From an uncultured Actinomycetota bacterium (GTDB lineage: Bacteria; Actinomycetota; Thermoleophilia; Gaiellales; Gaiellaceae): a stretch of 64,000 nt of DNA. Below the pieces are notes generated by a model. The model was not told the DNA's origin, did not search any database, and saw nothing but the letters and a program-made list of their open reading frames with translations. The stretch lies in contig CAVREC010000002.1 of the NCBI GenBank assembly GCA_963720045.1, positions 69,361 to 133,360 on the forward strand, in the 5' to 3' direction. This document shows positions 6,547-31,967 of this stretch, in pieces. Numbering within the stretch: the first letter of the stretch is position 1; each line of letters begins with the position of its first letter. Both the position numbers and the translations under genes were made by a program.

Positions 6547-9285
6547 TTACGCGTTCGGGTCGGGAACAGCCGGCAGGACCTGCACCGTGCTCCCGGTTCC
6601 GCCGCCCGGCTCCGGGGGCGGCGTGCCCGAACCGCCGCCCGAAACCGCGTCGAAGAGACCGCTGTTGCCGGTGCCCTGCTGAGCCGGCTCCGGGGTCGGT
6701 GACCCCGGGGTCGGTGCTGCGGGCGGCTCGACCGGAGGCGCCGCGCCCGCACCGGGCGGCTCGGGGGTGCCGCTTGCAAGGCCTGTGACGTCGCTTCCGC
6801 CTGCGAACTGCTCCTTGTAATACGGCTCGTCGAGGCTCGAGATCTTCACCACGTCGCCTGTGTGCGGGGCGTGGAGGAACATGTGGTTCCCGATGTACAG
6901 GCCCTCGTGGTGCACGTAGCCGGTCGAGTCCTTGAAGAAGACGATGTCGCCCGGCTTGAGGTCGTTCACGTTCGAGATGTGCTCGCCGACGTTGAACTGG
7001 TCGGCCGCGACGCGCGGGACGTGGATCCCGAGTTGGCCGTAGCTGTACTCCACGAGGCCCGAGCAGTCGAAGCCGGTCTGCGGCGTGTCGCCGCCCCAGT
7101 GATACGGCGTGCCGATGTATTTCTCCGCGATCGTCAGCGCCTGGACACCGGCCGCCGAGCCTCCGGCCGCGGCGCCCGTCGCGCCCTGGAGCGCTTCCGC
7201 TGCGGCAGCCGCGTCGGGCCCCGCGGTGCCTCCGGCTCCCGCCCCGCCCGGCCCACCTGCCGAAAGGAGGCTGTCGGCCTGGTCGAGGTGGGTCTGGTAG
7301 CGGCCGCGGTACTCGGCGGCGGGCTGCTCGACGTCCGCGACCCAGTCGCCCCACTTGCTCTTGTCCTGGCCGTAGCTCGCATCGCCCTGTGAGAGGCGTT
7401 CGCGCCGGACCTCGAGCGCCTGGTTGATGAACCACTTGAGCTGGAGCTCCGGGTGGTCGGAGAAGCCCTTGTACTCGCCCTGGTTCCAGATGCTCGTCCG
7501 CATCTGGAAGAAGCCGAGCGAGTCGCGGTCGCCGTAGTTGTCGTTCTTCAGGCCCGACTCGGTGAGCGCCGCCATGATCGGCAGCTCGGCCGGCAGCCCC
7601 GCCTTGTGTGCCTGCCGCGCCATCCACGCAGCGATCGCCTGCTGGGAGGCGTTGTCGCCGGGATAGGTGTCGCTCGCATCGGGCAGCCCGCCCGCCGCGT
7701 TCGGGTCGAATCCCTGGAGCGCCGACTCCGCGGCGGCTCCGCCGTGACCCGTGGCGGGCACCTCGAACTGGAAGGTCGAGTGACCCTCGCGGCCCTGCAC
7801 CGCTCCGATGACCATGCTCTGGTGCGTCGGCGGGGGTGGTGGCGCGCCGGGTGTCGTCACGGGCGTCACGGGCTCCGGCGGCGAGGTGGTCGGGGCGGCC
7901 GGCGGGGTGGTCGTGGGATCGGGCGGTGCGCCTCCGCCGGCGGGCGGCGTCGTCGGCGTGGGTGGAGGCGTCGTCGGCGCGGCGGGGGGAGTCGTCGTCG
8001 GATCCGGAGGCGGCGTCGAGGGCGCGGCCGGCGGGGTCGTTGCCGGATCGGGTGGCGTCCCGCCGGAAGGGGGCGTGGTCGCCGGGTCGGCCGGAGGCGT
8101 CGAACCGCCCTGTGGCTCTGGTGGCGTGGGCAACGGGGTGGGCGGCGGCGTCGTCGGCGCGGCCGGCGGCGTCGTGGTCGGGTCGGGTGGTGGTGTGGAG
8201 GGTGCGGCCGGCGGCGTCGTGGTCGGGTCGGGTGGTGGTGTGGAGGGCGCGGCCGGCGGCGTCGTGGTCGGGTCGGGTGGTGGTGTGGAGGGTGCGGCGG
8301 GCGGCGTCGTGGTCGGGTCGGGTGGTGGTGTGGAGGGCGCGGCCGGCGGCGTGGTGCTCGAATCCGGCGGCGTCGTGCCCGGCTCGGGCGGCGTCGTGCC
8401 CGGGGAAGGCGGCGTCGTTCCGGTGTCCGGCGTCGTCGAGGTGTCGACGGGGTCGTTCGTCCCGGCGACCATGTGCGTGGCCGGGGCCGAGGACGAGGGA
8501 GCGTCGAAGATGAGGTGGATCCGGTCGTCGTGGCCGCCGCCCTGCGTGAAGCCGTGCGCCTCGATCGGCCACGGTGTCACGATCTGCGCCGGCCGCAAGG
8601 ACGGGTCGAGCGAGGCGAGCTCGTTGGCCAGGTCGCGTGCGTAGATGTTCGACTGCGACACCCGCTCGCCGTCGACCGAGAGGATGTCGAACGAATCGCC
8701 TCCCGCCCCGTGGCTCACCTGGAGCGCCCCGATCTGGAGCTGGTGCTGCTTCGTCAGGTCGTCGAGCACCGACACGAGCCGAGCGTCGGCGCCGCCCCGT
8801 GCGAGGGCTGCGTGTGCCTCCGGCGAGAAGGTCAGGTGCGTGTTGTGAAGCAGGGTCGTGATGTCCGACGAGCTCGCGAGATGGGCCGATGAGCCCGAGC
8901 CCGCCAGATGGTCGGTGACGCCCGAGCCGTGGAGGTTGTCGGGATCGATCGCGTGCAGCTTCGGGCTCGTGAGCGCGTGATGGACGACCCGGTGGGCCTG
9001 GCCGTGAAGGTGGTTGTCATGGAGGTTCTTGAGGTGGTCGACGGCTCCGGTCCCCTCGGACGCGGCGGCCATGAACGCACCGGCGAGGCTCGAGCGGGAC
9101 TCGCGGATCTCGAGCGTGTGGAACATGCTCGCCGTGGAACCGCCGCCGAACTCGGTCGCGAGCTCCGGGAGGTCGAACTGCTCGCACGCGCTCGCCGGAT
9201 CGTGCCGGAAGCTCGCGCGGAACTCGTCGTCGGTCAGAAGCTTCTCGAGCAGCTCCGCAGCGCGTGCTTCGTCAGACGACTGCAC
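6547..9285 (-). CDS. multidomain cell-wall hydrolase: lytic-transglycosylase-like region plus NlpC/P60 endopeptidase; no signal peptide
   Basis: NlpC/P60 signature YIGTPYHWGGDTPQTGFDCSGLVEYSYGQLGIHVPR...GDIVFF...HHEGLYIG. SLT-like segment LPIMAALTESGLKN...DSLGFFQMRTSIW. Long TTPPAAPSTPPPDP repeats. The N-terminus MQSSDEARAAELLEKLLTDDEFRASF is hydrophilic. The start overlaps the upstream gene end by 14 nt. Confidence 0.85.
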   Translation of the reverse strand: MQSSDEARAAELLEKLLTDDEFRASFRHDPASACEQFDLPELATEFGGGSTASMFHTLEIRESRSSLAGAFMAAASEGTGAVDHLKNLHDNHLHGQAHRVVHHALTSPKLHAIDPDNLHGSGVTDHLAGSGSSAHLASSSDITTLLHNTHLTFSPEAHAALARGGADARLVSVLDDLTKQHQLQIGALQVSHGAGGDSFDILSVDGERVSQSNIYARDLANELASLDPSLRPAQIVTPWPIEAHGFTQGGGHDDRIHLIFDAPSSSAPATHMVAGTNDPVDTSTTPDTGTTPPSPGTTPPEPGTTPPDSSTTPPAAPSTPPPDPTTTPPAAPSTPPPDPTTTPPAAPSTPPPDPTTTPPAAPSTPPPDPTTTPPAAPTTPPPTPLPTPPEPQGGSTPPADPATTPPSGGTPPDPATTPPAAPSTPPPDPTTTPPAAPTTPPPTPTTPPAGGGAPPDPTTTPPAAPTTSPPEPVTPVTTPGAPPPPPTHQSMVIGAVQGREGHSTFQFEVPATGHGGAAAESALQGFDPNAAGGLPDASDTYPGDNASQQAIAAWMARQAHKAGLPAELPIMAALTESGLKNDNYGDRDSLGFFQMRTSIWNQGEYKGFSDHPELQLKWFINQALEVRRERLSQGDASYGQDKSKWGDWVADVEQPAAEYRGRYQTHLDQADSLLSAGGPGGAGAGGTAGPDAAAAAEALQGATGAAAGGSAAGVQALTIAEKYIGTPYHWGGDTPQTGFDCSGLVEYSYGQLGIHVPRVAADQFNVGEHISNVNDLKPGDIVFFKDSTGYVHHEGLYIGNHMFLHAPHTGDVVKISSLDEPYYKEQFAGGSDVTGLASGTPEPPGAGAAPPVEPPAAPTPGSPTPEPAQQGTGNSGLFDAVSGGGSGTPPPEPGGGTGSTVQVLPAVPDPNA
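8150..8345 (-). repeat. near-perfect 45-bp coding tandem repeat (TTTPPAAPSTPPPDP, about 4 copies) within a wider Pro/Thr tract (about 7860..8440)
   Basis: Direct reading of lines 8161-8340: the unit ggccggcggcgtcgtggtcgggtcgggtggtggtgtggagggygc recurs with 45-nt period. Confidence 0.85.
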
Positions 9286-10912
9286 CTTCGACTCCTGCCT
9301 CCCGGTCGCTTCGGCGTGCCGAGTACGCCTTCCAGAATACTGCCAGGATCGGGACGAGCATCAGGATGTAGAAGGCGATCAGCACCGCCCAGACGAGGCT
9401 CGCCGGGGCGATCGCGGTCATGTAGCCGTAGTAGCGCTGCGACATCACGACCGTGAACGCGGCGGTTGCGAGCGACCAGACGAGCGCGGTCACCGCGTAG
9501 GTGGCGAGCACGCCCGCGTCGTCGGGCTCCGCTTCCCGCCCGGAGAGGCGGTTCGAGAGCCATTCGCGCGAGCGGCGGCGCAGCCCGGGCTCGCGCATCA
9601 GGTCGACGAGGATGTGGTAGCCGTCGCGGTCGAGCAGCGGGTTCAGGTTGAAGATCGCGCCCGTGTAGGCGGCGAGGGCGAGCTGGAACCAGACGTCCTG
9701 CAGCGTCCCCGGCGACGAGAAGACGGCGAGGAGCGCGGCGGCGCCGGCGATCGTGAGGTCGCTGATCGGGCCCGCGGCGCTGATCGCGATCCGCCGGCGC
9801 GCCGGCTCGAACCACGCCTCCGAGGTGTCCACGTAGGCGTACGGGAAGATCAGCATCAGCTTGATCCCGGCCTTCGGAACCTTCCGGCCGAACGACTCGA
9901 CGGTCAGCCCGTGGGCGAACTCGTGCACGATCACGACGAGGAAGCGCCCGACGAGGAACACGATCCCTCCGACTCCGACCTTGCCCGCGACCACGAACGG
10001 GGCCACGGTGCCGCTGCCGATCAGGTCCGCGAACGCGACGATCCCGGCAGCCGAGATCAACGCGAACGCGATCAGCGGGGGCCGAGTGAAGAGCAGGAAG
10101 CCGCCGGCGCGATAGACCTTCGTGAAGACCGGGCCGAGCCAGGTGAAGTCCCACTGGCGCATCCGGAAGAGACGGGCAAGCTTCTTCTTCGAAGGCGGCG
10201 CCTTCGCCTCCTCGACCCCCTCGAGCAGGCCCCGCTCGCCGAGGTCTGCCAGCATCGAGGCGAGCTTGCTCGGGCCGTCGGCGCCGAAGCGCCCTGTCGC
10301 GGCCACGATCAGGCTCGACAGCGAGTTCTCGCCGTTCAGCAGCCCGAGCAGGTTTGCGTCCTCGGCGCTCAGCCGCACGAAACGGCCGTCGGGGCCGCGC
10401 AGGACGAAGCGGAGGTCGCCCTCGTCCGCGGCCAGCCGCTTCAGCTTCGAGCCGGCGCGCAGGCGGGGGAAACGGAGCGCGGCACCGTCCTCGTCGGGCA
10501 GGCCGGGGATCGCGCCGAAGACGACCGTGCGGCCGCTCTCCGACTCGTTGCGCTTTGCCTCGATCGTCAGTTGCACGTCGCCGAGCCCGAGCTTCGAGCC
10601 GTCGCGGAGCAGCGTCCGGCCGGTGATCTGCTGCCCGTCGACGAACGTGCCGTACGTCGAGCCGGCGTCCTCGACCGCCGGCCCGTCCGGGTCGATCACG
10701 ATCCGCGCGTGGTTACGGGAGACCGTCTCGCCCTGGATCCGGATCAGGTTCTCGCTGCCGCGGCCGAGCGTCAGCGGGCCGTAGACGAGCGGGATCCGGC
10801 GCCCGTCGCCGATGACGAGCTCGAGCGGCGCGCGGCCCTTGACGGGCGTGCCGCAGACGGTGCAGACGTCGTCGTCGCGTGCGATCTGGCATCGGCAGCT
10901 TCGGCAGAGCAT
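9272..10912 (-). CDS. zinc-ribbon + FHA domain + polytopic M50 (site-2-protease-like) metalloprotease
   Basis: ATG at 10912 lies 1 nt after the stop of the upstream gene (10914). Zinc ribbon CRSCRCQIARDDDVCTVCG. FHA signature LTLGRGSEN..VSRNHARIV..DAGSTYGTFVDG. Several TM segments. HEFAH (HExxH) and NLNPLLDRDGYH (NxxPxxxxDG) motifs. Confidence 0.8.
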   Translation of the reverse strand: MLCRSCRCQIARDDDVCTVCGTPVKGRAPLELVIGDGRRIPLVYGPLTLGRGSENLIRIQGETVSRNHARIVIDPDGPAVEDAGSTYGTFVDGQQITGRTLLRDGSKLGLGDVQLTIEAKRNESESGRTVVFGAIPGLPDEDGAALRFPRLRAGSKLKRLAADEGDLRFVLRGPDGRFVRLSAEDANLLGLLNGENSLSSLIVAATGRFGADGPSKLASMLADLGERGLLEGVEEAKAPPSKKKLARLFRMRQWDFTWLGPVFTKVYRAGGFLLFTRPPLIAFALISAAGIVAFADLIGSGTVAPFVVAGKVGVGGIVFLVGRFLVVIVHEFAHGLTVESFGRKVPKAGIKLMLIFPYAYVDTSEAWFEPARRRIAISAAGPISDLTIAGAAALLAVFSSPGTLQDVWFQLALAAYTGAIFNLNPLLDRDGYHILVDLMREPGLRRRSREWLSNRLSGREAEPDDAGVLATYAVTALVWSLATAAFTVVMSQRYYGYMTAIAPASLVWAVLIAFYILMLVPILAVFWKAYSARRSDREAGVEGAVV

Positions 10913-10913: not shown

Positions 10914-13874
10914 TCACGGGGGTGTGACGTATTGCCAGGACGGGTTCTGGGCCCCGGAGGCGCGGAGCTGGGTGACCGTGCCCGCCGAGGCGAGCTGCAG
11001 CCGGGCGAGCGCGCCGAGGGCATTCGAGCATGCGTTGTCGGCCTGCGTGACGATCACCTCGCCGCCGTCGGCGCGCCACGTGACCTCGCAGGCGCGAACC
11101 GTCGGGGTGACGGGTTTCGGCGTGCCGAGCTGGCCGCTCGACCACGTGGCCGTGTAGAGCCGGAAGACCTGGTTGTTCGTCCAGTTGGCGACGAGCGCGA
11201 CCTGCGTCCCGTCGGGCGAGAACGCGGCGTAGATCACGGCGTCGCTGCCTTTCGAGCCGTGCATCTTGTCGGTGACGAGGCCCTGCCACACCCAGTCGCT
11301 CGGGCTCGAGGAGAACGGGCGGGCGGTCGTGTACTCGCCGAGCTCGATCTGGTTCTTGTCCTTCGGGTCGTGTGCGACGACGAGGATCGCCCGCCCGTCG
11401 GGCGACCAGGCCGGGCGGTCGACGTCGAACGCCGGGTCCTTGATGCACGCGCCCTGATGGAGGGTCGAGGCCGTGCGGACGAAGCAGAGGTCGCCGTCGG
11501 TACCCGTCGAGGTCTTGCGAATGAACGCGATCACCTTGCCGTCCGGGGAGAACGCGGGTCTGCGGTCGTTCGGGCCCGCCGTGATCGCCCGCGCGCTCGT
11601 CGCGCCCTTCGAGGTGTCGACCATCCAGACCTTTCCCGCGTTCGCGTTCCCCGCCGGGCCGCGGCGGAAGGCGACGAGATGGCCGTTCGGCTGCCAGCTC
11701 GGCTCGTCCTCGGCATCGCCCGACGCCGCGATCTTCTTCGCGGCGGCGCCGTTGACCGCGCTCATCGTGTAGATCGAGGAGCCGTCGGAGAAGGCGACCG
11801 GAGGCAGGCCGGCGGAGATGATCAGCTGGACGGTCGCGCCCTTCGTCACCGTCGCCGGGTTCGTGCCGACGACCGTCCCGGGCTTCGCAGCGTCGAACTG
11901 CTGGCTCGTGACCGCCGTCGCACCCGCGGCTTTCACCGCCGCGGCCGCAGCGGCAGCGCTCTGCCCGGCGAGGGCGCCGCCGGCGACGGGCGTCGGCGTC
12001 GTCGTCTTTGTCCCGCCGGTCGTGGGCGGCACGACCTTCGGCGGATTGACGTAGATCGTCACCGCCGAGCCGGCCTTCTCCCTCGATTGCGCCGTCGGAA
12101 CCTGGAGCGAGATCTTCGCGGTCGTCGGGTTCACGGTCGAGGGAATCGGGTTCAGGACCGGCGCCAGTCCGGCGCCCTTGATCAGGGCCGAGGCCTGCGC
12201 GATCCCCTGGCCGACGACGTTCGGCACGGTGCGGAGGCCGCTGCCGACCGCGACGACGATCGTGATCGTCGTCCCTTCCGCGACCGGCGTCTTCGCGGCC
12301 GGGCTCTGGGTGATGATCGTGCCGATCTTCTTCTTCGCCCGCGAGGCGAGCTCGGGCTTGGCGGGACCGAGCACGAGCTTCAATCCGGGCAGTACTTTCT
12401 GGGCCTGCGCCTGGGTGGCGCCCACGAGGTTCGGGACACGCGGCTCGGCGACGAAGAACGTGACGGTCTTCCCGGTCTTGATCCTGTTTGCGGTGAAGTG
12501 GCCGTTCTGGACGGGCCCCTTGTGCCAGCTCGGGTTCTGCCTGACCACATGGAGGTAGGCGACCGTCTTCGAGGGCACCTCGCCGGGCGGCTGCGAAGCC
12601 GGCTTCAGGTTTGCCTTCTGGATCGCGAGCTGGGCTGCTGCGATCGTCATCCCGTGCAGATCCGGCACCGTCGTCTTGTGCGGGATCAGCGAATAGAGCA
12701 GTACCGCCGCCGCGATCAGGGCCGGGATCACGATCGGCACCCAGAAGGGGATCCACGGCTTCTGGCGGAAGGTGCCCTGAAGCGGCCTCGCGGTGGACTC
12801 GCCGACAGCCCCCTTCGCCGTGACCTCGAAGCGGCGCTCGATGATGCGTCCGACCCAGTGGTTGTGTTTCGGCTTGACGGTGAACTTCGTTCCGTCTCGC
12901 CGCCCGGGCTCGGCGACGAAGCGCGGCTTCTCGAAGTTGAAGTTGAGCGCGTTCTGGTTGTCGACCGCGGTGATCTCGGTGTCGAGCGGGGCGTTCGCCT
13001 TGTTCCGCACCATCACCGCGTACTCTCCGCGCCGCCGGCCGACGACGATCTCGGGCCGCAGCTCGCTCTCGATCTGCTCGTACGGGGTGATCTCGACCTT
13101 GCCCGCGGTCAGGCCGGTCACCTCGTTCTGGGCACGCGAGAGGGCGATCACCTCGATCTCCCAGATCCGCGCCTCGGCCTCGGCGCTGCGCGGCGGGCTG
13201 AAGTTGATGTGGACGTCCTGCTCGTAGGTGCCGCTCGGTGCGCCGAACGGGACGAGGTAGACCGACGGGGGCGTGACGTTCCACCACTCCTCGGGCATCC
13301 CCTTCACCTGGATCTCGTAGTTGTCGACGATGCCGCTCTGGTTGCGGACGAGCGCAGGCAGCGGGACGTGGCCGCCGGCCTCGACGACGAGTTTCTGCTC
13401 TTTGCCGGGAAGCTCCGGGTAGTTCAGCGTGATCTGCACCGCCTCCGTGACAAGGAGCGGCGCGACGCCCGGGATGTTCGGGGCATTCGGATCGCCCGCA
13501 CGGATCACGGGCATGTCCATCGTGCGCATCACCGGCACGGGAATCTCGACCGCGTGCTGTTCCTCGGGCGGCGCTGCGGGCGGTTCGGGCGGCGCTGCGG
13601 GCGGTGCGGAAGCCGCCGGCGGCGGAGCGGCTGCGGGTGGCGGGGCGGTGGCGGCAGCCGCACCTGCCGCTGCTGCCGGCACTACCTCGGCCGGAGCGGG
13701 CTCTTCAGGAGGAGGTGCGACCGGCGCAGGCTCGGCCGGCGCAGCGGGCGCTTCGGCCTCGGGCAGCTTGACGGCGGGCTGGAGCCGTGTCGGGTCCCAG
13801 CGCAGGTAGGTGCCGCAGTTGACGCAGAAGTCGACGTCGTCGTTCTCGTGCGCGCACTTCGGACAAGGGGCCAT
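10914..13874 (-). CDS. bitopic membrane protein: N-terminal zinc ribbon and Ig-like cytoplasmic region, one TM, 3-4 PASTA domains, TolB-like beta-propeller
   Basis: Zinc ribbon CPKCAHENDDVDFCVNCG, then a Pro/Ala linker and the TM helix WIPFWVPIVIPALIAAAVLLYSLI. PASTA-like units (TVPDLHGMTIAAAQLAI.., RVPNLVGATQAQAQKVL.., RTVPNVVGQGIAQASALI..). Repeated FSPDG/WSPDG propeller motifs (RPAFSPDGKVIAF, RPAWSPDGRAILV, AAFSPDGTQVALV). Confidence 0.8.
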   Translation of the reverse strand: MAPCPKCAHENDDVDFCVNCGTYLRWDPTRLQPAVKLPEAEAPAAPAEPAPVAPPPEEPAPAEVVPAAAAGAAAATAPPPAAAPPPAASAPPAAPPEPPAAPPEEQHAVEIPVPVMRTMDMPVIRAGDPNAPNIPGVAPLLVTEAVQITLNYPELPGKEQKLVVEAGGHVPLPALVRNQSGIVDNYEIQVKGMPEEWWNVTPPSVYLVPFGAPSGTYEQDVHINFSPPRSAEAEARIWEIEVIALSRAQNEVTGLTAGKVEITPYEQIESELRPEIVVGRRRGEYAVMVRNKANAPLDTEITAVDNQNALNFNFEKPRFVAEPGRRDGTKFTVKPKHNHWVGRIIERRFEVTAKGAVGESTARPLQGTFRQKPWIPFWVPIVIPALIAAAVLLYSLIPHKTTVPDLHGMTIAAAQLAIQKANLKPASQPPGEVPSKTVAYLHVVRQNPSWHKGPVQNGHFTANRIKTGKTVTFFVAEPRVPNLVGATQAQAQKVLPGLKLVLGPAKPELASRAKKKIGTIITQSPAAKTPVAEGTTITIVVAVGSGLRTVPNVVGQGIAQASALIKGAGLAPVLNPIPSTVNPTTAKISLQVPTAQSREKAGSAVTIYVNPPKVVPPTTGGTKTTTPTPVAGGALAGQSAAAAAAAVKAAGATAVTSQQFDAAKPGTVVGTNPATVTKGATVQLIISAGLPPVAFSDGSSIYTMSAVNGAAAKKIAASGDAEDEPSWQPNGHLVAFRRGPAGNANAGKVWMVDTSKGATSARAITAGPNDRRPAFSPDGKVIAFIRKTSTGTDGDLCFVRTASTLHQGACIKDPAFDVDRPAWSPDGRAILVVAHDPKDKNQIELGEYTTARPFSSSPSDWVWQGLVTDKMHGSKGSDAVIYAAFSPDGTQVALVANWTNNQVFRLYTATWSSGQLGTPKPVTPTVRACEVTWRADGGEVIVTQADNACSNALGALARLQLASAGTVTQLRASGAQNPSWQYVTPP

Positions 13875-22564: not shown

Positions 22565-22723
22565 CTAATAGCCCCCGACGCGGGCCGAGATCGCATCGGC
22601 CTCTTCGAGGAAGCGCCGGCGGTCGGGGTGTTCGAGGTCGAGGATCGTGTCGAGCGGCCAGTGGAAGTGATAGGCGAGCTCGGCCGCCTCCGCGATCAGC
22701 TCATGCGGAGACGGCCTGTTCAT
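22565..22723 (-). CDS. small 52-aa protein in the -1 frame relative to the preceding ORF (tail assembly chaperone E'-like position)
   Basis: MNRPSPHELIAEAAELAYHFHWPLDTILDLEHPDRRRFLEEADAISARVGGY. Its ATG overlaps the upstream stop as ATGA (22720..23). It is wedged between the tube side and the tape-measure slot. Confidence 0.5.
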   Translation of the reverse strand: MNRPSPHELIAEAAELAYHFHWPLDTILDLEHPDRRRFLEEADAISARVGGY

Positions 22724-25152: not shown

Positions 25153-25506
25153 TTAGGTCGGTCGACCGGTATGGAGCTCCCGAATGAGTGCCTCGGAAGC
25201 GGAAGCTGGTATGCGTCTTGGTGAGGTGCTGCCGGGGTCGAACACCTGCATCTCCGCCTCGTCGCGCGGCCAGAGGATCAGCTTTGCCCCGGGTGCGGCA
25301 ATCCGGACGCGGTCGCCCAGGTCGGTCAAGCTGCTTCGCTCGAGGCCGAGGACGATCGCGTCGGGTTGAAGGGCCCGTGCCTGTTCGACGAAGGCGTCCG
25401 GAAGCTCGTCGTCGCCGACGACTTCGAGTCCTTCATCCTCGAGAACCCGTGTCATTCCGAGCCTGGCAACGGGCTCGAGGTTCCCGATCAGGGCCCGTCG
25501 AGACAT
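25153..25506 (-). CDS. stand-alone receiver-like (pseudo-receiver) domain protein
   Basis: ATG at 25506. There is an alternating beta/alpha pattern like CheY (ALIGNLEP / LEVVGD / DAIVLGLE / KLILW). The acidic pocket and phospho-acceptor Asp positions appear substituted (GNLEP, VLGLE). There is no output domain. Confidence 0.45.
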   Translation of the reverse strand: MSRRALIGNLEPVARLGMTRVLEDEGLEVVGDDELPDAFVEQARALQPDAIVLGLERSSLTDLGDRVRIAAPGAKLILWPRDEAEMQVFDPGSTSPRRIPASASEALIRELHTGRPT

Positions 25507-25689
25507 GGCGTGAACTGTGGTTTTTCCCGGCGCAGAGCGCCAGAGGCGCCGGTGCATCGAAGAGGGCAGCATTCGCGCCCCAATGGGGCAAGCGCCGGCG
25601 GTTCGTCAGCCGCTCGAAGAAGCTCCAACTCGATGAGCACGTTGCTGCCTGGACGCGCTGGGCACGCGCAGTCAGCGAGTGGGATTGAG

Positions 25690-26583
25690 TTAGGGCTTCG
25701 CGGCGGCGGCCTTCGCCGCGCCGCCGAGCACGAGCTCCGCGCCCTGGCCCGGAATCGCGAGGGAGGCCTTCGTCTCCTTGCCGTCGGGCCCGCGCGCAAC
25801 CACCGTGTATTTGCCGGAGTGGAGGCGATCGAAGCGGAAGCGGCCCTCGCCGTCGGTCACGGCGAGCTGCCCCGTCTCCTGGAGGAGAACCCACACGTTC
25901 CGGATCGCCTCACCGTTGCCGTTCACGACGGTGCCGCCGCTCCGGTGCATCTCGAGCAGCGTTGCGTTCCTGGCATCGCGGTCGAAGAGCCGGGTCGTCG
26001 CTGTCTTCACCTCGGGGCCGCGCTCGAGCGAGACGCCGGACTCGCAGGAAAGCGTCACCACGTAGTTGAAGGACGCCTTGTACTGGCCGCCGACCGCGCT
26101 CCAGAAGTCCGAGGCGTCCTCGTGGCGCTCCTGTGCGGTCGTCGTCTTCAGCGGGAAGCGCTGCGAGCCGTTCGCGAGCGAGGCCGCCAGCATCTCGGCC
26201 GGCAGGACCGGGAAGGCGTAGAAGATCGCCATCGTCTGCGAGAGCAGCCGGTGCTCGTCCTGCACGTCGCGCGTCCAGGCGGTCACCGCGTACGACGCAT
26301 CGATGCGGAGCGGGGGCCGTAGGTCGGTCGTGCGCCCTTCGCGAACCTGCTCCTGCCACTCGATCGGCCGAAGGTCCTTCGCCTCGCGGATGTCGTAGAG
26401 GAAGAGGTTCACCGCGGGGCTCGAGAGCGACGCCGCCCATTCCTTGTCGGGCGCGTCGAACTCGATCTCGACCCCGTCGAAGCCGTGGCGCTCGAGGTCA
26501 CGCTTGAGCAGGTTCTTCAGCGACTCGTCCAGGTCGGCGAGCATCGTGTTGATCGGAACCTGGATCTTCATCGGCAGCGCCAT
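25690..26583 (-). CDS. tail terminator/cap protein (DUF4255, Pvc16/Afp16-like) with C-terminal carboxypeptidase-regulatory-like beta-sandwich
   Basis: N-terminal INTMLADLDESLKNLLKRDL...PAVNLFLYDIRE is typical of DUF4255. C-terminal GTVVNGNGEAIRNVWVLLQETGQLAVTDGEGRFRFDRLHSGKYTVVA. Confidence 0.8.
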   Translation of the reverse strand: MALPMKIQVPINTMLADLDESLKNLLKRDLERHGFDGVEIEFDAPDKEWAASLSSPAVNLFLYDIREAKDLRPIEWQEQVREGRTTDLRPPLRIDASYAVTAWTRDVQDEHRLLSQTMAIFYAFPVLPAEMLAASLANGSQRFPLKTTTAQERHEDASDFWSAVGGQYKASFNYVVTLSCESGVSLERGPEVKTATTRLFDRDARNATLLEMHRSGGTVVNGNGEAIRNVWVLLQETGQLAVTDGEGRFRFDRLHSGKYTVVARGPDGKETKASLAIPGQGAELVLGGAAKAAAAKP

Positions 26584-26779: not shown

Positions 26780-27628
26780 GTGGCCATGTACGCAGAGCGC
26801 GAGCGTCGGCCCCCTCGTTCGCGCGAGTCGAAGGGCCTCGGCCGCGCGACGCGCGACGAGCTCGAGCACCCGATGCTCGCCCTCCAGCACTCGATCGGGA
26901 ATCGCGCCGTGGCCGGTCTCGCGCGGTCGCTCCTTCTGCGTCAGCCTGACGGCCACGCCGCGCCGCAGGAGCTCCACGACGTGCCGATCGGCCAGCCGCC
27001 CCCGACGCAGGTCCCTGCGGCCGACCTCGCGTCCGCCGGGGGATCGCCGCCGGCCACCGTGACCTACACGGGGCCACCCGCCGCGGCTGCAACGACGGCT
27101 CCGACCACGCCCGCCGCTCCGTCGACGGCGCAGGCGCCGGCCCCCGATCCGGCTCAGGCTCCGGCGCAGACACCGGCGGCGACGCCGGCACCGACCGGCG
27201 ACACGAGCACCCCGCACAGCGACTGGACGCTGACGCGCGACCCGTTCAACGTCACGCTCACCTACACGATCGCCGACCTGCACCTCTGGCGCTCGCGCTC
27301 GCGCCTGCTCGACATCGACTTCCTCGCCGACCCGTCGGCCAGCATCTCGGTCGGCCTCGACGAGCCGCACGCAGCCGCCGGCGGCGCCGCGGTCAACCTC
27401 TTCCTCGTCCACGTGAAGCAGAACGGCGACAGCTTCCTCGATCTCGGCGTCGGCCCCTCGGTCGGCTTCGACGGCTCGTCAGCCACCGTCAGCGGCCAGG
27501 GCACGGCGGAGCTGCACCTCGACGCGACGACGTCGCTGACCTTCACCGCGACCTTCACGCCGACTCCGGGCCCGGATGGGCTCGGGCTGAACTCGACCGA
27601 GGTGCTCGGGTTCATGAAGCACTTCTAG
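26780..27628 (+). CDS. candidate CIS-associated cargo: DUF4157-type N-terminal leader motif, Pro/Ala/Thr linker, unknown beta-rich C-terminal domain
   Basis: LALQHSIGNRAVAGLARSLL resembles the leader motif preceding DUF4157 domains (compare LASTMGNQAFSTLARQ in 30751..31284). It has no HExxH. The C-terminal roughly 130 aa is unassigned. Possible starts: GTG 26780, ATG 26786, ATG 26873. Confidence 0.6.
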   Translation: MAMYAERERRPPRSRESKGLGRATRDELEHPMLALQHSIGNRAVAGLARSLLLRQPDGHAAPQELHDVPIGQPPPTQVPAADLASAGGSPPATVTYTGPPAAAATTAPTTPAAPSTAQAPAPDPAQAPAQTPAATPAPTGDTSTPHSDWTLTRDPFNVTLTYTIADLHLWRSRSRLLDIDFLADPSASISVGLDEPHAAAGGAAVNLFLVHVKQNGDSFLDLGVGPSVGFDGSSATVSGQGTAELHLDATTSLTFTATFTPTPGPDGLGLNSTEVLGFMKHF

Positions 27629-28155
27629 CTCGCCGTTTCGCCTCGTGCCTCGCGCAACGCGCGGATGTCGATCAGATCTTGGTTTCGCCCGGCGATGTTC
27701 TTGAAGTCGATGAGGTCATCGAAACCTACGAACGCGACGTCGCCGAACGGGTAGTGGGCAACGGCCGCGCGTTCCCTGAGCTCCGCGAAGTCTTCGGGCG
27801 TTTCCAACTTGCCCGCCACATACTGGAGAACGTCGAGCCGCCCGAACCTCGTTGCTAGATCCCAGTTCCCGTGATCGAGCAGGCTGTCGAGGCTCAACGG
27901 CGCAGCCAGTTCCTTCTCCTTGAACGCGCCCAGGGCAAGAGGCCGTGCCTCGAGTTCCTCGAGCGCCTTCCAGAGGCGGCTCAGGCTCTCGCGGTCGGGC
28001 GCAGGGATGATGTCGACGTCCTTCGTTGTCCGCGTGAACCCGTGATGGCTCACGGCGACACCGCCCATGACGAGAAAGTCCGTCCGATGTCGAGTCAGGA
28101 GATCCAGGATCTCGTCGATTTGAGGGATCGGGACCGAACTGCCGATGTGATTCAT
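27625..28155 (-). CDS. nucleotidyltransferase-fold protein (AbiEii/MNT-like, possible toxin-antitoxin component)
   Basis: DFLVMGGVAVSHHGFTRTTKDVDII matches the GG...D.D nucleotidyltransferase pattern. ATG at 28155 overlaps the upstream stop (ATGA). G+C is locally lower. Confidence 0.5.
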   Translation of the reverse strand: MNHIGSSVPIPQIDEILDLLTRHRTDFLVMGGVAVSHHGFTRTTKDVDIIPAPDRESLSRLWKALEELEARPLALGAFKEKELAAPLSLDSLLDHGNWDLATRFGRLDVLQYVAGKLETPEDFAELRERAAVAHYPFGDVAFVGFDDLIDFKNIAGRNQDLIDIRALREARGETAS

Positions 28156-28676
28156 GACCCCGCCGCCAGTCTGTTCAGCGAACGATGGAGGGCTGCCAGC
28201 TGAAGCACACGCTCCTCGGGGGTCGTCCGCTCGTACTCGTAGCGGAGCTCGTCGTAGCTCTGATTGGGGCGGGGAAGAGCGGCGAGTTCGGAGCTGTAGA
28301 CCAGACGTCCCCCGCGGTCGGGCCACCTGAGCTCCTGGAAAGCCCGCGCTAGAAGGCCGCGCTTCACGCCCTCGCGCTTCAGTGTTTCGACCTGCACCGC
28401 AAGGTCGAGCAGCGCGCCGGTTTCGACGGCGAGCCGGGATGAGTGCGGGTAGGCAACCGCCGGTAGCCGCCCGCGATCGACCCAGCGGTCAAGGGCGGTG
28501 ACGCTGACACCCAGGAGTTGGCCGGCCAGGCCCTTCTGAATGCCCGCTGGAAGTTCGCGACGTAGACCGACCTCGATTTGCCGCAGTTCCTCGCGGAGCT
28601 CCGCGTCGCGTGTCTGCCGGATCGCCAAACGCAGTCGGACGACGGCATCAAGAATCGAGGGGACGGGCGAGGCCAT
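28152..28676 (-). CDS. helix-turn-helix DNA-binding protein, putative partner of the nucleotidyltransferase
   Basis: GLAGQLLGVSVTALDRWVDRGRLPAV is HTH-like. It is translationally coupled to the downstream gene. Confidence 0.5.
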   Translation of the reverse strand: MASPVPSILDAVVRLRLAIRQTRDAELREELRQIEVGLRRELPAGIQKGLAGQLLGVSVTALDRWVDRGRLPAVAYPHSSRLAVETGALLDLAVQVETLKREGVKRGLLARAFQELRWPDRGGRLVYSSELAALPRPNQSYDELRYEYERTTPEERVLQLAALHRSLNRLAAGS

Positions 28677-28748
28677 GCCCAGATCCTAGCCCAAGTTTGT
28701 CTTACGGCCTTATGTTGACCAACTTAGAGGATCGTGGTCCCCGCAGAA

Positions 28749-30803
28749 CTAGGGAACCGCCGGGAACGCGCCCGTTGTCGGCTTGATCACTTCGAGGAAG
28801 TGCTCGAAGTCGGCCTCGATAGTGAGGCGGCCGAGCTTGTTGTACTCGAGGGCGACCGCGCGGACGAGATGCTCCATTCCGATCGGGGTGCCGGCGTCGG
28901 CGGCCATGAACGCGCCTGAGAGGGAGCAGTTGCGGATGCTCCCACCCGAGAGCCGGAAGCGTTTGGCGAGGAAGTGGAGGTCGATGTCGTCGGCCTGCGG
29001 TGCCTCCGTCGGGAGGACGAGCTTCCAGATCCGCTCGCGGTCCTCGGGCTCGGGGAACGGGAAGTCGACGACGACGTCGAGACGGCGCAGGAAGGCGTCG
29101 TCCATGTTCTGGCGGAAGTTCGTGGCGAGGATCACGGCGCCGGGGTAGCCCTCCATCTTCTGGAGCAGGTAGGCGACCTCGATGTTCGCGTAGCGGTCGT
29201 GCGCGTCGCGAACCTCGGAGCGCTTGCCGAAGAGCGCGTCGGCCTCGTCGAAGAAGAGGATCGCGTTCGAGCCTTCCGCGGCGCCGAAGACGCGGTCGAG
29301 GTTCTTCTCGGTCTCCCCGATGTACTTGGAGACGACCGTCGCGAGGTCGAGGCGGAAGAGGTCGAGGCCGAGGTCGCGCGCAAGGACCTGGCCCGCCATC
29401 GTCTTCCCGGTTCCCGACTCGCCGGCGAAGAGCACCTTGATCCCCTGGGTGCGCGCGACGGTCTTCTCGTAGCCCCATTCGGAGAGCACGAGGTCGCGAT
29501 GGCGTAGGTAGGCCGAGATCGAATGGAGCACCTCGAGTTGGCGCTCGGCGATCACGAGGTCGCCCCAGCCGAACGGCGAGTCGAGGCGGGTGGCGAGCTC
29601 GGCGAGGCGGGTGCTCGAGGCGCGGCGGGCGCCGAGGTCGAGGTCGGCGCGGACCGGCACGGTCTCGCCGCGGGTGCCGGCGGAGAGTCGCGCGACGGCG
29701 GCGGCGTCGTTGATCTGGCCGATCGAGAGCCGGAACTTCGCGGCGACATCGTCGATCTCGTCGCTGCCGGTCGCGCTGACCCAGGCCCGACGGCGCTCCG
29801 CGAAGCTCGGCTGCGAGGCCTCGACGACGATCGCCGTGGCCTCGCCGAGCGTCACGACGGCCTGCGCGGAGGCGGCGACGATGAGGACTCCTTCGCCGCG
29901 GGCGGCGAAGGCGCGCTGCACGCGGAGGTGCTTGTCGGGCTCGAGGTCGTCGAGGCCGTCGAAGCAGAGCTGGCGGCCTTCGAGCAGCGCGGTGACGGTG
30001 GCGTCGCGCATCAGCTCGGCATCTCCGGCATCGACCGCGTCGACGAGGAGCAGCGGCCGGCCGACCGTGGCCGCGAGGAGCGCCTCGGCGTCGGGGCCTA
30101 CGAGAAGAATCGGCAGGCGGGTCGAGGCGTCGAGCAGCGGGCGGAGCTCGGCGATCGTCGCGGCCCGGCCTGGGTCGTAATCGGGAAGAGGCACCGGACG
30201 GAGCCGTCCGTCGCGCGCCGGTTCGTCGAGCCCGCTCGCGAGCAGGTGCGCTGCCAGCCGGTCGGAGACCTTCAGCAGCCGGTCGGCGACCGGGAGCTGG
30301 CTTCCGGACTCGAGCAGCCGGACTGCGCCGGTGCGGCGAAGCGGCGCCTCGTGATCGAAGCAGTCGAGCGCCTGCGCCGCCGAGAACCCCGAATCGGCCA
30401 GGAGCCGGGCCACGAGCCGCGGGCTCGCGAGCTTCCGCGTCACGTCGTCGTGCAGGTAGGCGAAGAGACGGCCGTAATGCGGGCCCAGCTCGGGTGCGGC
30501 GCAGAGGGCCATCGCTGCCGCCTCGGCGTCGCTCAGTCCGAGGAGGTGGGCGGCGCGGGCGATCCGGTCATCGAGATCCTGGCCCGGGCCCTCGCGCGAG
30601 AGCTCGACGGCGAGCTCGTCGGAGATATAGAGGCCGCGAAACGGGTCAGCCGGGTTCGGATCGGTGGCCGCGACCGCCTCGACGGCGGAGCGGATCCGGC
30701 CGTCGAGTGCGTCGAAGGTATGGAGCGCAGTGTTGAGCTCGGGGACCGGGTCAGCCGACGAGGTCACCGGCCGCTGCCTCCGCCTCGTTCTCGAGCGCAT
30801 CAC
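28749..30803 (-). CDS. CIS AAA+ ATPase (Afp15-like)
   Basis: C-terminal AAA module GIKVLFAGESGTGKTMAGQVLA (Walker A), AILFFDEADALF (Walker B) and ILATNFRQNMDDAFLRRLD. Large N-terminal domain. The start is uncertain (GTG 30767 is possible). Confidence 0.9.
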   Translation of the reverse strand: MMRSRTRRRQRPVTSSADPVPELNTALHTFDALDGRIRSAVEAVAATDPNPADPFRGLYISDELAVELSREGPGQDLDDRIARAAHLLGLSDAEAAAMALCAAPELGPHYGRLFAYLHDDVTRKLASPRLVARLLADSGFSAAQALDCFDHEAPLRRTGAVRLLESGSQLPVADRLLKVSDRLAAHLLASGLDEPARDGRLRPVPLPDYDPGRAATIAELRPLLDASTRLPILLVGPDAEALLAATVGRPLLLVDAVDAGDAELMRDATVTALLEGRQLCFDGLDDLEPDKHLRVQRAFAARGEGVLIVAASAQAVVTLGEATAIVVEASQPSFAERRRAWVSATGSDEIDDVAAKFRLSIGQINDAAAVARLSAGTRGETVPVRADLDLGARRASSTRLAELATRLDSPFGWGDLVIAERQLEVLHSISAYLRHRDLVLSEWGYEKTVARTQGIKVLFAGESGTGKTMAGQVLARDLGLDLFRLDLATVVSKYIGETEKNLDRVFGAAEGSNAILFFDEADALFGKRSEVRDAHDRYANIEVAYLLQKMEGYPGAVILATNFRQNMDDAFLRRLDVVVDFPFPEPEDRERIWKLVLPTEAPQADDIDLHFLAKRFRLSGGSIRNCSLSGAFMAADAGTPIGMEHLVRAVALEYNKLGRLTIEADFEHFLEVIKPTTGAFPAVP

Positions 30804-31284
30804 CCGGCTCGGAGACCTGGAGCGGGCCGCTCGTCGCCGCGCCGCGCTGCTGGACGACGTGCGTCAGCTCGTGCGCGAGCAGTTGCTGGCCCTCGCTCGA
30901 GCCCGGGTTGTGCTCGCCCTTGGCGAAGTAGACGTCGCTGCCGGTGGTGAAGGCGCGGGCGGAGACCGACTGCGCGAGCGACGCGGCGTGGTCGTCGGTG
31001 TGCACGCGGACGTCGTGCAGCGAGTCGCCGAGTCCGCCGCCGATCTGCTCGCGCGAGCTGTCGTCGAGCTTCTGGCCGCTGCCGCGCGTCTGTGCGATCG
31101 CCGACTCGACGTCGGGATGAGCGCGGCCGTCGGGCAGGATCCCGGCGCCCTGGCGGGCAAGTGTCGAGAAGGCCTGGTTGCCCATCGTCGAGGCGAGGCG
31201 CTGAGCCTCGGGGATGTCGGGAGTCTGCGCAGCGGGGCGCTTTGCGCCCTGCGACTGCTCGAGCTCTCGTTCGTAGCTCGACAT
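30751..31284 (-). CDS. DUF4157 (eCIS-associated, HExxH metallopeptidase-like) domain protein
   Basis: LASTMGNQAFSTLARQ...DVRVHTDDHAASLAQSVSARAFTTGSDVYFAKGEHNP...LLAHELTHVVQQ. ATG at 31284 shares one nt with the upstream stop. Confidence 0.85.
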   Translation of the reverse strand: MSSYERELEQSQGAKRPAAQTPDIPEAQRLASTMGNQAFSTLARQGAGILPDGRAHPDVESAIAQTRGSGQKLDDSSREQIGGGLGDSLHDVRVHTDDHAASLAQSVSARAFTTGSDVYFAKGEHNPGSSEGQQLLAHELTHVVQQRGAATSGPLQVSEPGDALENEAEAAAGDLVG

Positions 31285-31967
31285 CAGGTAACGCGCACGT
31301 CCTGGCGCTTGGCGATCTTGCCGTTCACGACCAGCGTCGCATACCAGGTGCCCTTCGGAAGGGCCTTGGTCGACTTCAGGAACGAGTAGACCGTCGTCGC
31401 GTACGGCTTGGTCACCGCGCCGAGGTAGGTGAAGCTCGGCGTGCGCCACTCGATCTTCACGGTCTTCGCGCCCGGCGGTGGGACGAGGAAGTGGAACCGC
31501 GCCCAGAGGATGTGAGTGCTGCTCGGGACGGACCTCGTGGCCTTCCCGTTCTGCGTGGAGCTGACGACCCCGTTGTCGACGACGCCCTCGGAGGGGGTCG
31601 GCACCGTGAACTTCGCCGTCGCGCTACCGACCTTCAGGACGTAGTCCCGTGGCGGGAGCCGCGCGGGGAGCTTGATCGTCTCGGCGGCAGCGCCGGACTT
31701 GGTGAACGAGTACTGCTTGACCGCCGCCACCGGGCCGGGCACGACCGGGCGGACCGAAGCCTGGACGCTCGCCGGGCCGCTGACCGTGATCGTGAAGTGG
31801 AGGTTCCCCGTGAGCCAGCCCTGATTCCAGACCGCGCTGACGTGGACATTCGAGAGTCCCACCGATGCGGCAGGTGTCGCCGACGCCGTCGCCGGGAGCA
31901 GCAGCACGGCGATCACGAAGATCACCCCGGCAAGCCGTGCGCCCTTTGGCGCGTGCCCGCGTTTCAT
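31284..31967 (-). CDS. secreted protein of unknown function, first gene of the ATPase sub-operon
   Basis: MKRGHAPKGARLAGVIFVIAVLLLPATASA is signal-peptide-like. The mature part is beta-rich. Alternative starts at 31976 and 32003 (TTG). Confidence 0.55.
   Translation of the reverse strand: MKRGHAPKGARLAGVIFVIAVLLLPATASATPAASVGLSNVHVSAVWNQGWLTGNLHFTITVSGPASVQASVRPVVPGPVAAVKQYSFTKSGAAAETIKLPARLPPRDYVLKVGSATAKFTVPTPSEGVVDNGVVSSTQNGKATRSVPSSTHILWARFHFLVPPPGAKTVKIEWRTPSFTYLGAVTKPYATTVYSFLKSTKALPKGTWYATLVVNGKIAKRQDVRVT

Follow-up and report, generated by a model that had tools for sequence, protein, structure and literature searches.

A Streptomyces-type contractile injection system from an uncultured member of Thermoleophilia, linked to a conserved set of membrane, cell-wall and kinase genes

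The cytoplasmic contractile injection systems (CIS) of Streptomyces, typified by CIS-Sc of S. coelicolor, are encoded by gene clusters that lack a conventional fiber and a typical tape measure, with PAAR present only in S. venezuelae (PMC10066040). Subtype IId of the dbeCIS classification has as its defining features one afp11 homolog and a VgrG encoded by one contiguous ORF (PMC6899500), and 120 type IId genomes are tabulated in the paper on CisA (PMC12237407), a bitopic membrane protein of S. coelicolor that is encoded just after cis12, is required for contraction, and has a cytoplasmic part that was modeled onto Cis11. How cytoplasmic CIS find the membrane and get their firing signal is a question left by this work. 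Here we describe a window of 64,000 nucleotides (contig CAVREC010000002.1, positions 69,361 to 133,360; all positions below are those of the window) from an uncultured Gaiellaceae-like member of the class Thermoleophilia. The minus strand of positions 6547-31976 encodes a complete CIS of the Streptomyces type, accompanied by a membrane, cell-wall and kinase gene set that may control where and when the machine fires.

As the window has about 70% G+C, raw lists of open reading frames (ORFs) are crowded with spurious frames, and we therefore tested directly the gene set proposed in an earlier note on this DNA, using a codon-trained ORF picker and family searches; a sliding frame plot of G+C at third codon positions (GC3) was discarded, its noise being too high at 70% GC. 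Gene identities were taken from Pfam at curated cut-offs, with further profile searches of NCBIfam and PHROGs. The earlier note had read the cluster as a complete CIS locus, and this stands: sheath, tube, baseplate and all other core parts gave significant Pfam matches, every core call lying above its curated cut-off. These genes are, in the direction of transcription:

30751-31284, minus strand: DUF4157/eCIS_core protein of 177 aa (PF13699, 5.5e-29) with a GNxA..LAR motif, a candidate Sle2-like adaptor.
28749-30803, minus strand: ATPase with WHD and AAA domains, the Cis15/Afp15 equivalent (PF00004, 4e-24; PF22977, 9e-20).
25690-26583, minus strand: cap Cis16/Afp16 of the Pvc16_N/DUF4255 family (Pvc16_N, 1.7e-37) with a C-terminal CarboxypepD_reg-like domain; best PDB match 9gts_0A, 8e-26.
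23589-25136, minus strand: contractile sheath Cis2 (Phage_sheath_1 and Phage_sheath_1C), matching 8bky/9gtp (2.4e-162) and 8bl4/9gts (2e-159) end to end.
23126-23566, minus strand: inner tube Cis1 (Phage_T4_gp19, 6e-28).
19350-19829, minus strand: second tube-family protein or tube initiator, Cis1b/Cis5 (Phage_T4_gp19, 1.7e-37; 7aeb_Y, 7e-23; 9gtp_a, 4e-17).
18652-19347, minus strand: LysM hub Cis7 (CIS_tube, 3.5e-27, plus LysM; 9gtp_P, 9e-29).
16971-18626, minus strand: VgrG-like spike Cis8 (Phage_base_V, 1e-25; 9gtr_q, 9.5e-55), one contiguous ORF of 551 aa with no C-terminal extension.
16545-16952, minus strand: gp25-like sheath initiator Cis9 (GPW_gp25, 4.9e-26; 9gtp_V, 5e-40).
14539-16545, minus strand: Baseplate J wedge Cis11, single copy (Baseplate_J, 1.9e-16), with 9gtp_1K as its sole PDB match (3.8e-136).
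13889-14542, minus strand: Tail_P2_I wedge protein Cis12 (PF09684, 3e-10; 9gtp_E, 2.4e-21).

The Pfam calls also reproduce the gene order given earlier for this main operon and for a second sub-operon (secreted protein, DUF4157, AAA+ ATPase), together with the presence of DUF4255, DUF4157 and the AAA+ ATPase as hallmarks of extracellular CIS (eCIS). Its reading of the junctions is exact to the base, with 1- or 4-nt overlaps at 31284, 28152, 22720, 16545 and 14539, gaps of 5 nt (22559), 2 nt (19347) and 1 nt (10912), and 18 nt between VgrG and gp25. Corrections concern the start of the DUF4157 gene, which is the ATG at 31284 (177 aa), that of Baseplate_J, which is the ATG at 16545, and a 1-kb "gap" at 27625-26583, which contains an unlisted plus-strand ORF (26780-27628).

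When all PDB sequences were searched, CIS-Sc chains were the best matches for the sheath and for Cis7, 8, 9, 11, 12 and 16, and the chains of AFP, PVC, AlgoCIS, the thylakoid-anchored CIS (tCIS) and pyocin ranked far behind; the second tube protein is closest to AlgoCIS 7aeb_Y, CIS-Sc coming next. An exact-sequence look-up of the sheath gave no match. The resemblance to the cytoplasmic Streptomyces CIS that had been noticed earlier is thereby upheld, the chains of S. coelicolor and S. venezuelae CIS being the best full-length matches, as is the remark that the accessory genes differ. Both defining features of subtype IId are present, namely one Baseplate_J gene and one contiguous 551-aa VgrG. 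With best PDB matches as a proxy for placement, these sequences put the machine in the Streptomyces CIS-Sc lineage as a type IId-like member, and we regard its identity as a CIS-Sc-type CIS as very nearly certain. No called gene in the 64 kb matches head, fiber or PAAR families, as the earlier note had also found. The absence of fiber and PAAR is correct but not itself novel, since it was already described for CIS-Sc (PMC10066040); as those clusters were reported without fiber, PAAR or typical tape measure, we take the absence here as a trait of the lineage.

A one-genome-per-species scan with Baseplate J recovered 13 loci on chromosomal contigs of 0.05-1 Mb. The closest, at 96% identity, is from a metagenome-assembled genome (MAG) of Gaiellaceae, and many uncultured soil Actinomycetota MAGs follow at 83-95%; it is from these closest loci that the lineage of the host is taken. 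More distant are two loci at 58%, one from a Solirubrobacterales MAG at 55% and one from Mycobacterium at 37%. Six genus names of Thermoleophilia and Rubrobacter do not occur in the supplementary files of PMC12237407, including the source table of the 120 type IId genomes, and we found no published literature linking CIS with Thermoleophilia. The core machine is a CIS-Sc-type member in a bacterial class new for it.

The main operon continues beyond Cis12 with three genes that the earlier note had called non-phage. They are indeed there; but together with a convergent kinase gene they form a conserved CIS-linked module, and are not incidental neighbors:

10914-13874, minus strand: bitopic membrane protein of 986 aa, here termed the anchor, with a zinc ribbon, a Pro/Ala linker, two immunoglobulin (Ig)-like domains, a transmembrane (TM) helix at residues 379-397, four PASTA domains and a PD40 propeller.
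9272-10912, minus strand: zinc ribbon-FHA-polytopic HExxH intramembrane metalloprotease of 546 aa (FHA, 7e-15; Peptidase_M50, 2e-8).
6547-9285, minus strand: peptidoglycan hydrolase of 912 aa, with an NHLP-type leader, a conserved N-domain, Pro/Thr repeats, an SLT-like motif and an NlpC/P60 domain (NLPC_P60, 5e-28).
2344-6513, plus strand: receptor Ser/Thr kinase of 1389 aa (Pkinase, 3e-50; TM 844-862), convergent with the hydrolase gene.

The anchor occupies the slot of fiber genes and of CisA. Pfam and TM prediction give it an N-in/C-out topology with the four PASTA domains and the PD40 propeller outside the cell. An AlphaFold2 model of a 270-aa region (pLDDT 91) consists of two Ig-like beta-sandwiches leading into the single TM helix. 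The cytoplasmic region has only 132 homologs in 5.8 billion proteins, none of them annotated, and Foldseek returns only generic Ig/ASH/PapD-like matches with low TM-scores for its domain, which is therefore assigned no function. We rejected the catalogued fiber anchor eBAP5 as a label for this protein: DUF6519 (eBAP5), the only catalogued fiber-anchor profile searched, has no match in it.

For the comparison with CisA we used residues 1-310 of that protein, as recovered from the deposited model of PMC12237407. CisA begins with MTTQNCAECGTPAEPGQSFCDACGAVLSWD and the anchor with MAPCPKCAHENDDVDFCVNCGTYLRWD, each followed by a Pro/Ala-rich linker, and the signature of the anchor is kept across its clade. 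In hhalign a profile of the clade N-termini matches CisA with 95.5% probability (E 1.5e-8, 31 columns); controls against the same profile reached 69% for the ribbon of the FHA protein and 93% for a second ribbon of CisA. As these controls temper the match, we term the anchor CisA-like in position, topology and N-terminal module only, and consider homology of the two proteins likely. CisA has two CxxC...CxxC zinc-ribbon motifs in its cytoplasmic region, at residues 6-23 and 223-240 (PMC12237407, supplement 14). That paper calls the region largely unstructured, and the word "zinc" does not occur in its main text; CisA itself thus starts with a conserved zinc ribbon where published descriptions speak of an unstructured region. 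At the present locus the first 25 residues of each of the two membrane proteins (9272-10912 and 10914-13874) hold a double-CxxC zinc ribbon, and a tail assembly chaperone ORF (22720-23097, see below) ends in a single CPSC half-motif. They may have a binding partner in common.

Residues 164-519 of the FHA protein match daptide_HExxH (NF041824 of NCBIfam) at 1.4e-35, which places it among the intramembrane HExxH proteases of the daptide and YydH/LiaK kinds, enzymes for the maturation of ribosomally synthesized and post-translationally modified peptides (RiPPs); a literature search on the daptide protease found no paper. Across 119 FHA-protease sequences the four ribbon cysteines, the Gly-Arg and Ser-x-x-His of the FHA domain, the HExxH and an NxxPxxxxDG motif are invariant. 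The hydrolase has neither a predicted Sec signal peptide nor a predicted TM segment. Its first 40 residues match the NHLP-related leader TIGR04509 (36.4 bits against a curated cut-off of 34), a match reproduced in 6/6 divergent orthologs with E-values of 1e-6 to 1e-10. The leader is conserved and ends in a Gly-rich EFGGG/GAG motif, and its region is kept in relatives whose downstream domains are shuffled (SLT-like, NlpC/P60, M23; the SLT motif of the window protein is a reading by eye). The protease and hydrolase genes overlap by 14 nt here and are also overlapping in five of seven distant loci sampled below. The simplest reading of this homology and synteny is a protease-substrate pair in which removal of the leader would activate or release the hydrolase. 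The kinase consists of a kinase domain, a Pro/Ala linker, one TM helix and about 450 aa outside the cell. Repeats mark both of the latter genes: 45-nt tandem repeats at 7936-8438 encode the Pro/Thr-rich linker of the hydrolase (TTPPAAPSTPPPDP, repeated), and at 6293-6463 a 12-nt unit present 14 times gives the kinase an extracellular tail rich in Asp, His and Ala (DDADHDADDDA...), which could bind metal ions. Low-complexity linkers of Pro, Ala and Thr are a feature that the tape-measure-slot protein shares with the hydrolase, kinase and anchor.

To follow the module through relatives, every window protein was compared by tblastn with the 13 genome loci. The order from cap to NlpC/P60 is collinear in 11 of the 13, down to 58% Baseplate J (Cis11) identity. 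A kinase gene lies beside the cluster in all 11 clade loci and also in L091, L092 and L134 (L numbers designate related loci), and L007 and L008, with 58% and 55% Baseplate J identity respectively, have matches to the kinase domain downstream of the cluster. The accessory module recurs in L007 and L091-L093. Many loci from Microflora Danica MAGs (L005, L009-L011, L013 and L133-L135) have broken CIS genes, visible as partial tblastn segments and split calls; this is probably long-read indel error, and absences from single loci should therefore not be over-read. The FHA-M50 protein has at least 1,518 homologs, from which we sampled seven on long contigs with 48-55% identity. All seven are encoded directly after CIS baseplate genes, behind Tail_P2_I and a large PASTA/PD40-type protein, and all seven precede a large hydrolase-type gene, with a kinase and a GerE regulator usually nearby. 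The Mycobacterium CIS locus has none of the module genes (anchor, FHA-protease, hydrolase, kinase), and the conservation is therefore not generic actinobacterial synteny. We found no published literature linking CIS with PASTA and FHA; this accessory set is the new part of the locus, a module undescribed in the literature searched, and on the evidence of sequence its genes are part of the CIS system.

The same four genes could instead be an independent wall-remodeling or division module that merely shares the CIS neighborhood, since actinobacterial wall growth has PASTA, FHA, Ser/Thr kinases and NlpC/P60 enzymes among its standard components, partial matches to PknB, FhaB/FipA and RipA/B/C come up in NCBIfam, none of the four belongs to the known parts of CIS, and no such proteins occur in the CIS-Sc structure (PMC12237407). 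We think this improbable. The junctions with the baseplate operon are 14-nt, 1-nt and overlapping, and the genes are collinear in the 11 genome loci and in all seven sampled distant relatives. Further, the cytoplasmic family of the anchor is tiny (132), with those members that were placed in fetched loci, a minority of the 132, following Tail_P2_I; the N-terminal ribbon of the anchor resembles that of CisA; and the module is absent from the Mycobacterium CIS locus.

We propose a mechanism, built on homology and synteny, to which we give an even chance. 1) The particle, fiber-less and PAAR-less, would be retained in the cell as in S. coelicolor and dock baseplate-first on the cytoplasmic membrane. 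2) It would dock on the bitopic protein whose gene directly follows that of Cis12; the zinc ribbon and two Ig-like domains of this protein would face the baseplate, and its PASTA and PD40 domains would sit in the cell wall, anchoring the system or reporting wall status. 3) The receptor Ser/Thr kinase would phosphorylate a target bound by the FHA domain of the HExxH protease. 4) That protease would remove the NHLP-like leader of the hydrolase encoded by the overlapping gene; since the hydrolase lacks a Sec signal, leader removal would activate or release it, and the FHA domain with the conserved kinase would make this step phosphorylation-dependent. 5) Firing together with wall hydrolysis would produce a regulated breach of the envelope, leading either to cell death and lysis or to passage of the tube and its cargo. 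A precedent for step 3 is type VI secretion (T6SS), whose activation by the PpkA kinase and by Fha binding to phosphothreonine is described (PMC3953482, PMC5995506).

Several points weigh against this proposal. The likeness to CisA spans about 30 zinc-ribbon residues, for which unrelated ribbons also score 69% and 93%, the two ectodomains have nothing in common, that of the anchor being PASTA/PD40 and that of CisA substrate-binding-like, and the Foldseek result for the Ig domains is generic. The protease matches NF041824 with 123 bits against an equivalog cut-off of 300 and is homologous, not an equivalog; the NHLP matches straddle their curated cut-off (27-38 bits against 34); and the Asn of the usual "TNG" loop of FHA domains is His or Tyr in this family. 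A cognate phosphatase is not evident in the operon. Gaiella is unicellular, and the developmental role of CIS-Sc is therefore not simply transferable. Localization, firing, phosphorylation and cleavage are here inferred from the genes. The more specific claim that a dedicated module wires cytoplasmic CIS firing to the state of the cell wall, with the PASTA/PD40 anchor reading peptidoglycan and the kinase acting through the FHA-protease, whose RiPP-style leader recognition would unleash the hydrolase, is tentative and on balance doubtful. In broader terms, the machine is of a known kind, in a variant that is probably phospho-regulated and wall-coupled, its mechanism being inferred.

A wall hydrolase without signal peptide at the end of the operon also fits a true extracellular, tailocin-like CIS that assembles in the cytoplasm and is released by lysis of the producer through the kinase-controlled, protease-activated hydrolase, the PASTA protein being a wall sensor and not a docking site. 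Endolysins occupy such a place in tailocin loci, the eCIS hallmark genes DUF4255, DUF4157 and AAA+ are all present, and the cargo hotspot of relatives holds toxin-like ORFs that include a calpain-like protease and a DUF4157 fusion. Such a particle would need to bind a target; the locus has no fiber and no catalogued baseplate-anchor domain (eBAP5/DUF6519) for this (PMC12923769), the closest characterized relatives are not released from cells (PMC10066040), and the protein in the fiber slot is predicted to be membrane-embedded. No holin was identified by the family searches used, which may miss small holins. We judge release from the cell unlikely.

The membrane anchor in the fiber slot, the conserved receptor kinase and the FHA protein beside a contractile machine, which parallel the PpkA-Fha pathway (PMC3953482), could also be read as a T6SS-like, outward-firing machine of a monoderm. 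Its baseplate would be held by the PASTA/PD40 protein and the FHA-protease, the hydrolase would open the wall, cargo would pass to neighbors, and threonine phosphorylation would switch on assembly. Specialized lytic enzymes serve other trans-envelope systems, and the hydrolase is comparable to these; the polymorphic cargo ORFs would likewise suit such a role. On the other side, no TssJLM, TssBC or ClpV homologs were found, the sheath and baseplate are of the eCIS/phage type, no immunity gene was identified next to the candidate cargo, and the literature searched holds no demonstrated monoderm outward-firing CIS. We rate this reading as quite improbable.

The remaining genes of the main operon lie between cap and sheath and between the two tube genes:

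25153-25572, minus strand: clade-specific protein of 139 aa, found between cap and sheath in nearly all relatives, a probable pseudo-receiver.
22720-23097, minus strand: tail assembly chaperone of 125 aa (phrog_508, 4.5e-8), with 55-99% identity across relatives.
22565-22723, minus strand: DUF6760 protein of 52 aa (PF20546, 1.5e-7), in the -1 frame, with an ATGA overlap at the chaperone stop.
19845-22559, minus strand: protein of 904 aa in the tape-measure slot, Pro/Ala-rich and predicted to be disordered, with conserved ends.

The PHROGs assignment of the 125-aa ORF completes a P2-like order of sheath, tube, chaperones and tape measure. The layout of this ORF and the 52-aa gene is that of frameshifted phage chaperone pairs (E/E+E' of P2, G/GT of lambda), and no canonical slippery heptamer was seen by eye at their junction. 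Apart from DUF6760, the 52-aa product has no match in Pfam, NCBIfam or PHROGs. The 904-aa protein has no family in Pfam, NCBIfam or PHROGs, including those of tape-measure proteins. It is 39% Pro plus Ala, varies from 580 to 904 aa among intact orthologs, and is conserved only in its N-terminal 150 residues and an invariant C-terminal helix. Such a sequence would suit a protein that acts in the lumen or as a ruler and is anchored by its ends; it resembles neither the helical tape measures known from phages nor the enzyme-bearing Streptomyces effectors Tme/Sle1. The 139-aa protein, which has only 55 homologs, was called receiver-like in the earlier note. Its predicted fold agrees, with moderate support: the AlphaFold2 model (pLDDT 74) is flavodoxin-like, and its best Foldseek matches are mostly receiver or pseudo-receiver domains, at a TM-score of about 0.55. 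An hhalign comparison with receiver domains, on the other hand, is not significant (probability 4%), and the sequence has neither the acidic pocket of receivers nor their phospho-acceptor Asp. We use pseudo-receiver as a working label that the model makes probable.

The P2-like gene order with its tail assembly chaperone, along with sheath relatives in IMG/VR at 29-53% identity, are what a tail module of an ordinary or decaying myovirus prophage would show. The rest of the window speaks strongly against it. No called gene of the 64 kb matches capsid, portal, terminase, integrase, PAAR or fiber families, in agreement with the earlier reading, and no tRNA gene or Rfam match was found in the window, which takes in 32 kb of sequence on one flank of the cluster and 6.5 kb on the opposite flank; no head genes adjoin the cluster within it, and the flanks are chromosomal regulators, transporters and the kinase. 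Among 50,697 phage records no sheath exceeds 34% full-length identity, whereas CIS-Sc is matched end to end at E 1e-162. DUF4255, DUF4157 and the AAA+ ATPase are eCIS markers, and the same head-less cluster is syntenic on many chromosomal contigs of 0.1-1 Mb. We reject the prophage reading as effectively refuted.

Upstream of the cap the related loci, 77 of which were found in a metagenome scan with the ATPase, keep an invariant order of DUF4157 and then ATPase, followed by a spacer that varies from 0.1 to 6 kb. The earlier note had missed this hotspot between ATPase and cap, which in the window holds the last three of the following genes:

31284-31976, minus strand: signal-peptide protein of 230 aa (hydrophobic residues 15-33, then ATASA), overlapping the DUF4157 gene.
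28152-28676, minus strand: protein of 174 aa (HTH_17 at 0.0022, below cut-off).
27625-28155, minus strand: DUF6036 nucleotidyltransferase-like protein of 176 aa (PF19502, 2.6e-5), ATGA-coupled to the 174-aa gene.
26780-27628, plus strand: candidate cargo or effector of 282 aa, divergent from the cap gene (GC3 0.89).

The 230-aa protein has no family match in Pfam, NCBIfam or PHROGs, and its relatives, 33-35% identical, are encoded between ATPase and cap at L014, L018 and L038. The 174-aa and 176-aa genes, not found in the related loci examined, are possibly a toxin-antitoxin-like pair. The 282-aa protein has no match in the three profile collections. Its N-terminal motif LQHSIGNRAVAGLAR...PDGHA recurs only once in the six frames of the window, namely in the DUF4157 protein. 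In related loci the LQHSIGNRAVAGLAR motif is carried by two groups of proteins: 1) every small DUF4157 ortholog, and 2) large, mutually unrelated ORFs in the same spacer (L018, L021, L026 and L038), three of which are opposite in strand to the operon, two of those starting a short way upstream of the cap. The motif-bearing ORFs include ones for a calpain-like protease and for proteins with coiled coils, and in L031 a DUF4157 fusion with the motif lies upstream of the small DUF4157 gene. The Sle1/Sle2 logic of S. lividans is a precedent for a small DUF4157 adaptor (PMC13277306), and from this logic and the shared motif we take the 282-aa ORF as a candidate cargo or effector.

A regulator gene is a recurrent neighbor of the cluster:

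33810-34448, minus strand: LuxR/GerE-type response regulator (Response_reg and GerE).

Its relatives adjoin the CIS in L048, L086, L091 and L092, and GerE was reported as an eCIS regulator (PMC8213781). A BTAD-AAA-TPR regulator (36928-39675) belongs to a class that has been reported beside eCIS; since it did not turn up in the related loci examined, we do not count it as part of the system. On the plus strand at 39787-42032 lies a partner-switching set, a GAF-SpoIIE(PP2C)-HATPase fusion and then two STAS proteins; it holds the sole PP2C-type phosphatase domain seen near the kinase/FHA module and was not found beside the CIS in the related loci examined. L048 and L086 represent a distant CIS clade (L048 6561-7283 and 13191-13652; L086 4150-4611). 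Its sheath is 51% identical, its DUF4157 gene stands on the opposite strand, between cap and sheath, and upstream of the ATPase it has a 24%-identical relative of the Ig-like domain of the anchor; going by this relative, the fusion with PASTA may have come later than the Ig module itself.

Farther out, an 83-bp unit is repeated 3.4 times with 98% identity at 48109-48389, just upstream of a 570-aa ORF (48467-50179) with a weak STT3-like match. At 51876-55253 and 55300-64000 the genes for an SBP_bac_5 solute-binding protein and a BPD_transp_1 permease are each split into two or three ORFs, and beyond about 55.3 kb no frame has the usual GC3 coding signal, which suggests that the right-hand part of the window has frameshifts due to assembly indels, or else decaying genes. 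PADLOC matches are to generic kinase, PASTA and AAA domains, and we call no defense system.

With regard to how cytoplasmic CIS are placed and triggered, this lineage amounts to a natural experiment, in which the same machine has an adaptor with recognizable peptidoglycan-binding domains and is locked to a kinase, a phosphothreonine reader, a protease and a hydrolase. A vague "stress signal" thereby becomes a set of specific, testable protein-protein and protein-wall interactions. The CIS type is extended to an abundant, barely cultured soil class, and at least 1,500 related FHA-protease genes are in public data. If true, the wiring of CIS firing to the state of the cell wall would provide the first phospho-regulated trigger described for a contractile system other than the T6SS, and the first NHLP-leader/HExxH-protease pair acting on an enzyme and not on a peptide.

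Among known systems, NHLP-leader RiPP systems with daptide or epipeptide HExxH proteases share with this locus adjacent overlapping genes for a protease of that family (1.4e-35) and for an NHLP-type leader with a Gly-rich end. They differ in that the "precursor" here is a wall hydrolase of 570-1610 aa (912 aa in the window) in place of a short peptide, in that modification enzymes are absent here, and in that the protease carries an FHA domain; the family matches, moreover, lie below or near their cut-offs. The PpkA/Fha/PppA pathway of the T6SS likewise ties a receptor Ser/Thr kinase and an FHA protein genetically to a contractile machine (PMC3953482, PMC5995506), and serves as an analogy only. 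In the present protein a zinc ribbon, an FHA domain and an intramembrane metalloprotease form one chain, and no PP2C phosphatase is in the operon; with no Pfam match to the TssB/C sheath, TssJLM or ClpV among the called genes and a sheath of the Phage_sheath_1 type, the machine is not a T6SS.

The tCIS of Anabaena is intracellular and attached to a membrane through proteins in the fiber position (PMC12923769, PMC12237407), as we propose for the present system, and has a related sheath (6e-59). It uses the crown/eBAP4 anchor family and another membrane, and no PASTA, FHA or kinase genes are described for it. The classical eCIS, such as AFP of Serratia, PVC of Photorhabdus and AlgoCIS, share the core parts, the Afp15 ATPase, the Afp16 cap and DUF4157-associated cargo, whereas their sheaths match only at 1e-48 to 1e-54 and only in the C-terminal domain, and the present cluster has no fiber or PAAR, a phage-like gene order and a membrane protein in the fiber slot.

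The Streptomyces CIS (CIS-Sc, SCO4242-4260; CIS-Sv; SLP of S. lividans; type IId) are the nearest of all. They have in common with this locus orthologous sheath, tube, Cis7, 8, 9, 11, 12 and 16 and AAA+ ATPase, a single Cis11, a contiguous VgrG, no Afp13 fiber, no typical Afp14 and, as in S. coelicolor, no PAAR. Both have a bitopic protein with an N-terminal zinc ribbon and a Pro/Ala linker right after cis12, a small DUF4157 protein beside variable cargo, and a GerE-type regulator nearby. The differences lie in the host, which is here of the Thermoleophilia and not the Actinomycetes, and in the anchor, which here combines a pair of cytoplasmic Ig-like domains with an ectodomain of four PASTA domains and a PD40 propeller, in place of the substrate-binding-like domain of CisA. 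Conserved genes that the present locus has in addition encode the FHA-HExxH protease, the hydrolase with its leader, the receptor kinase and, between cap and sheath, the probable pseudo-receiver.

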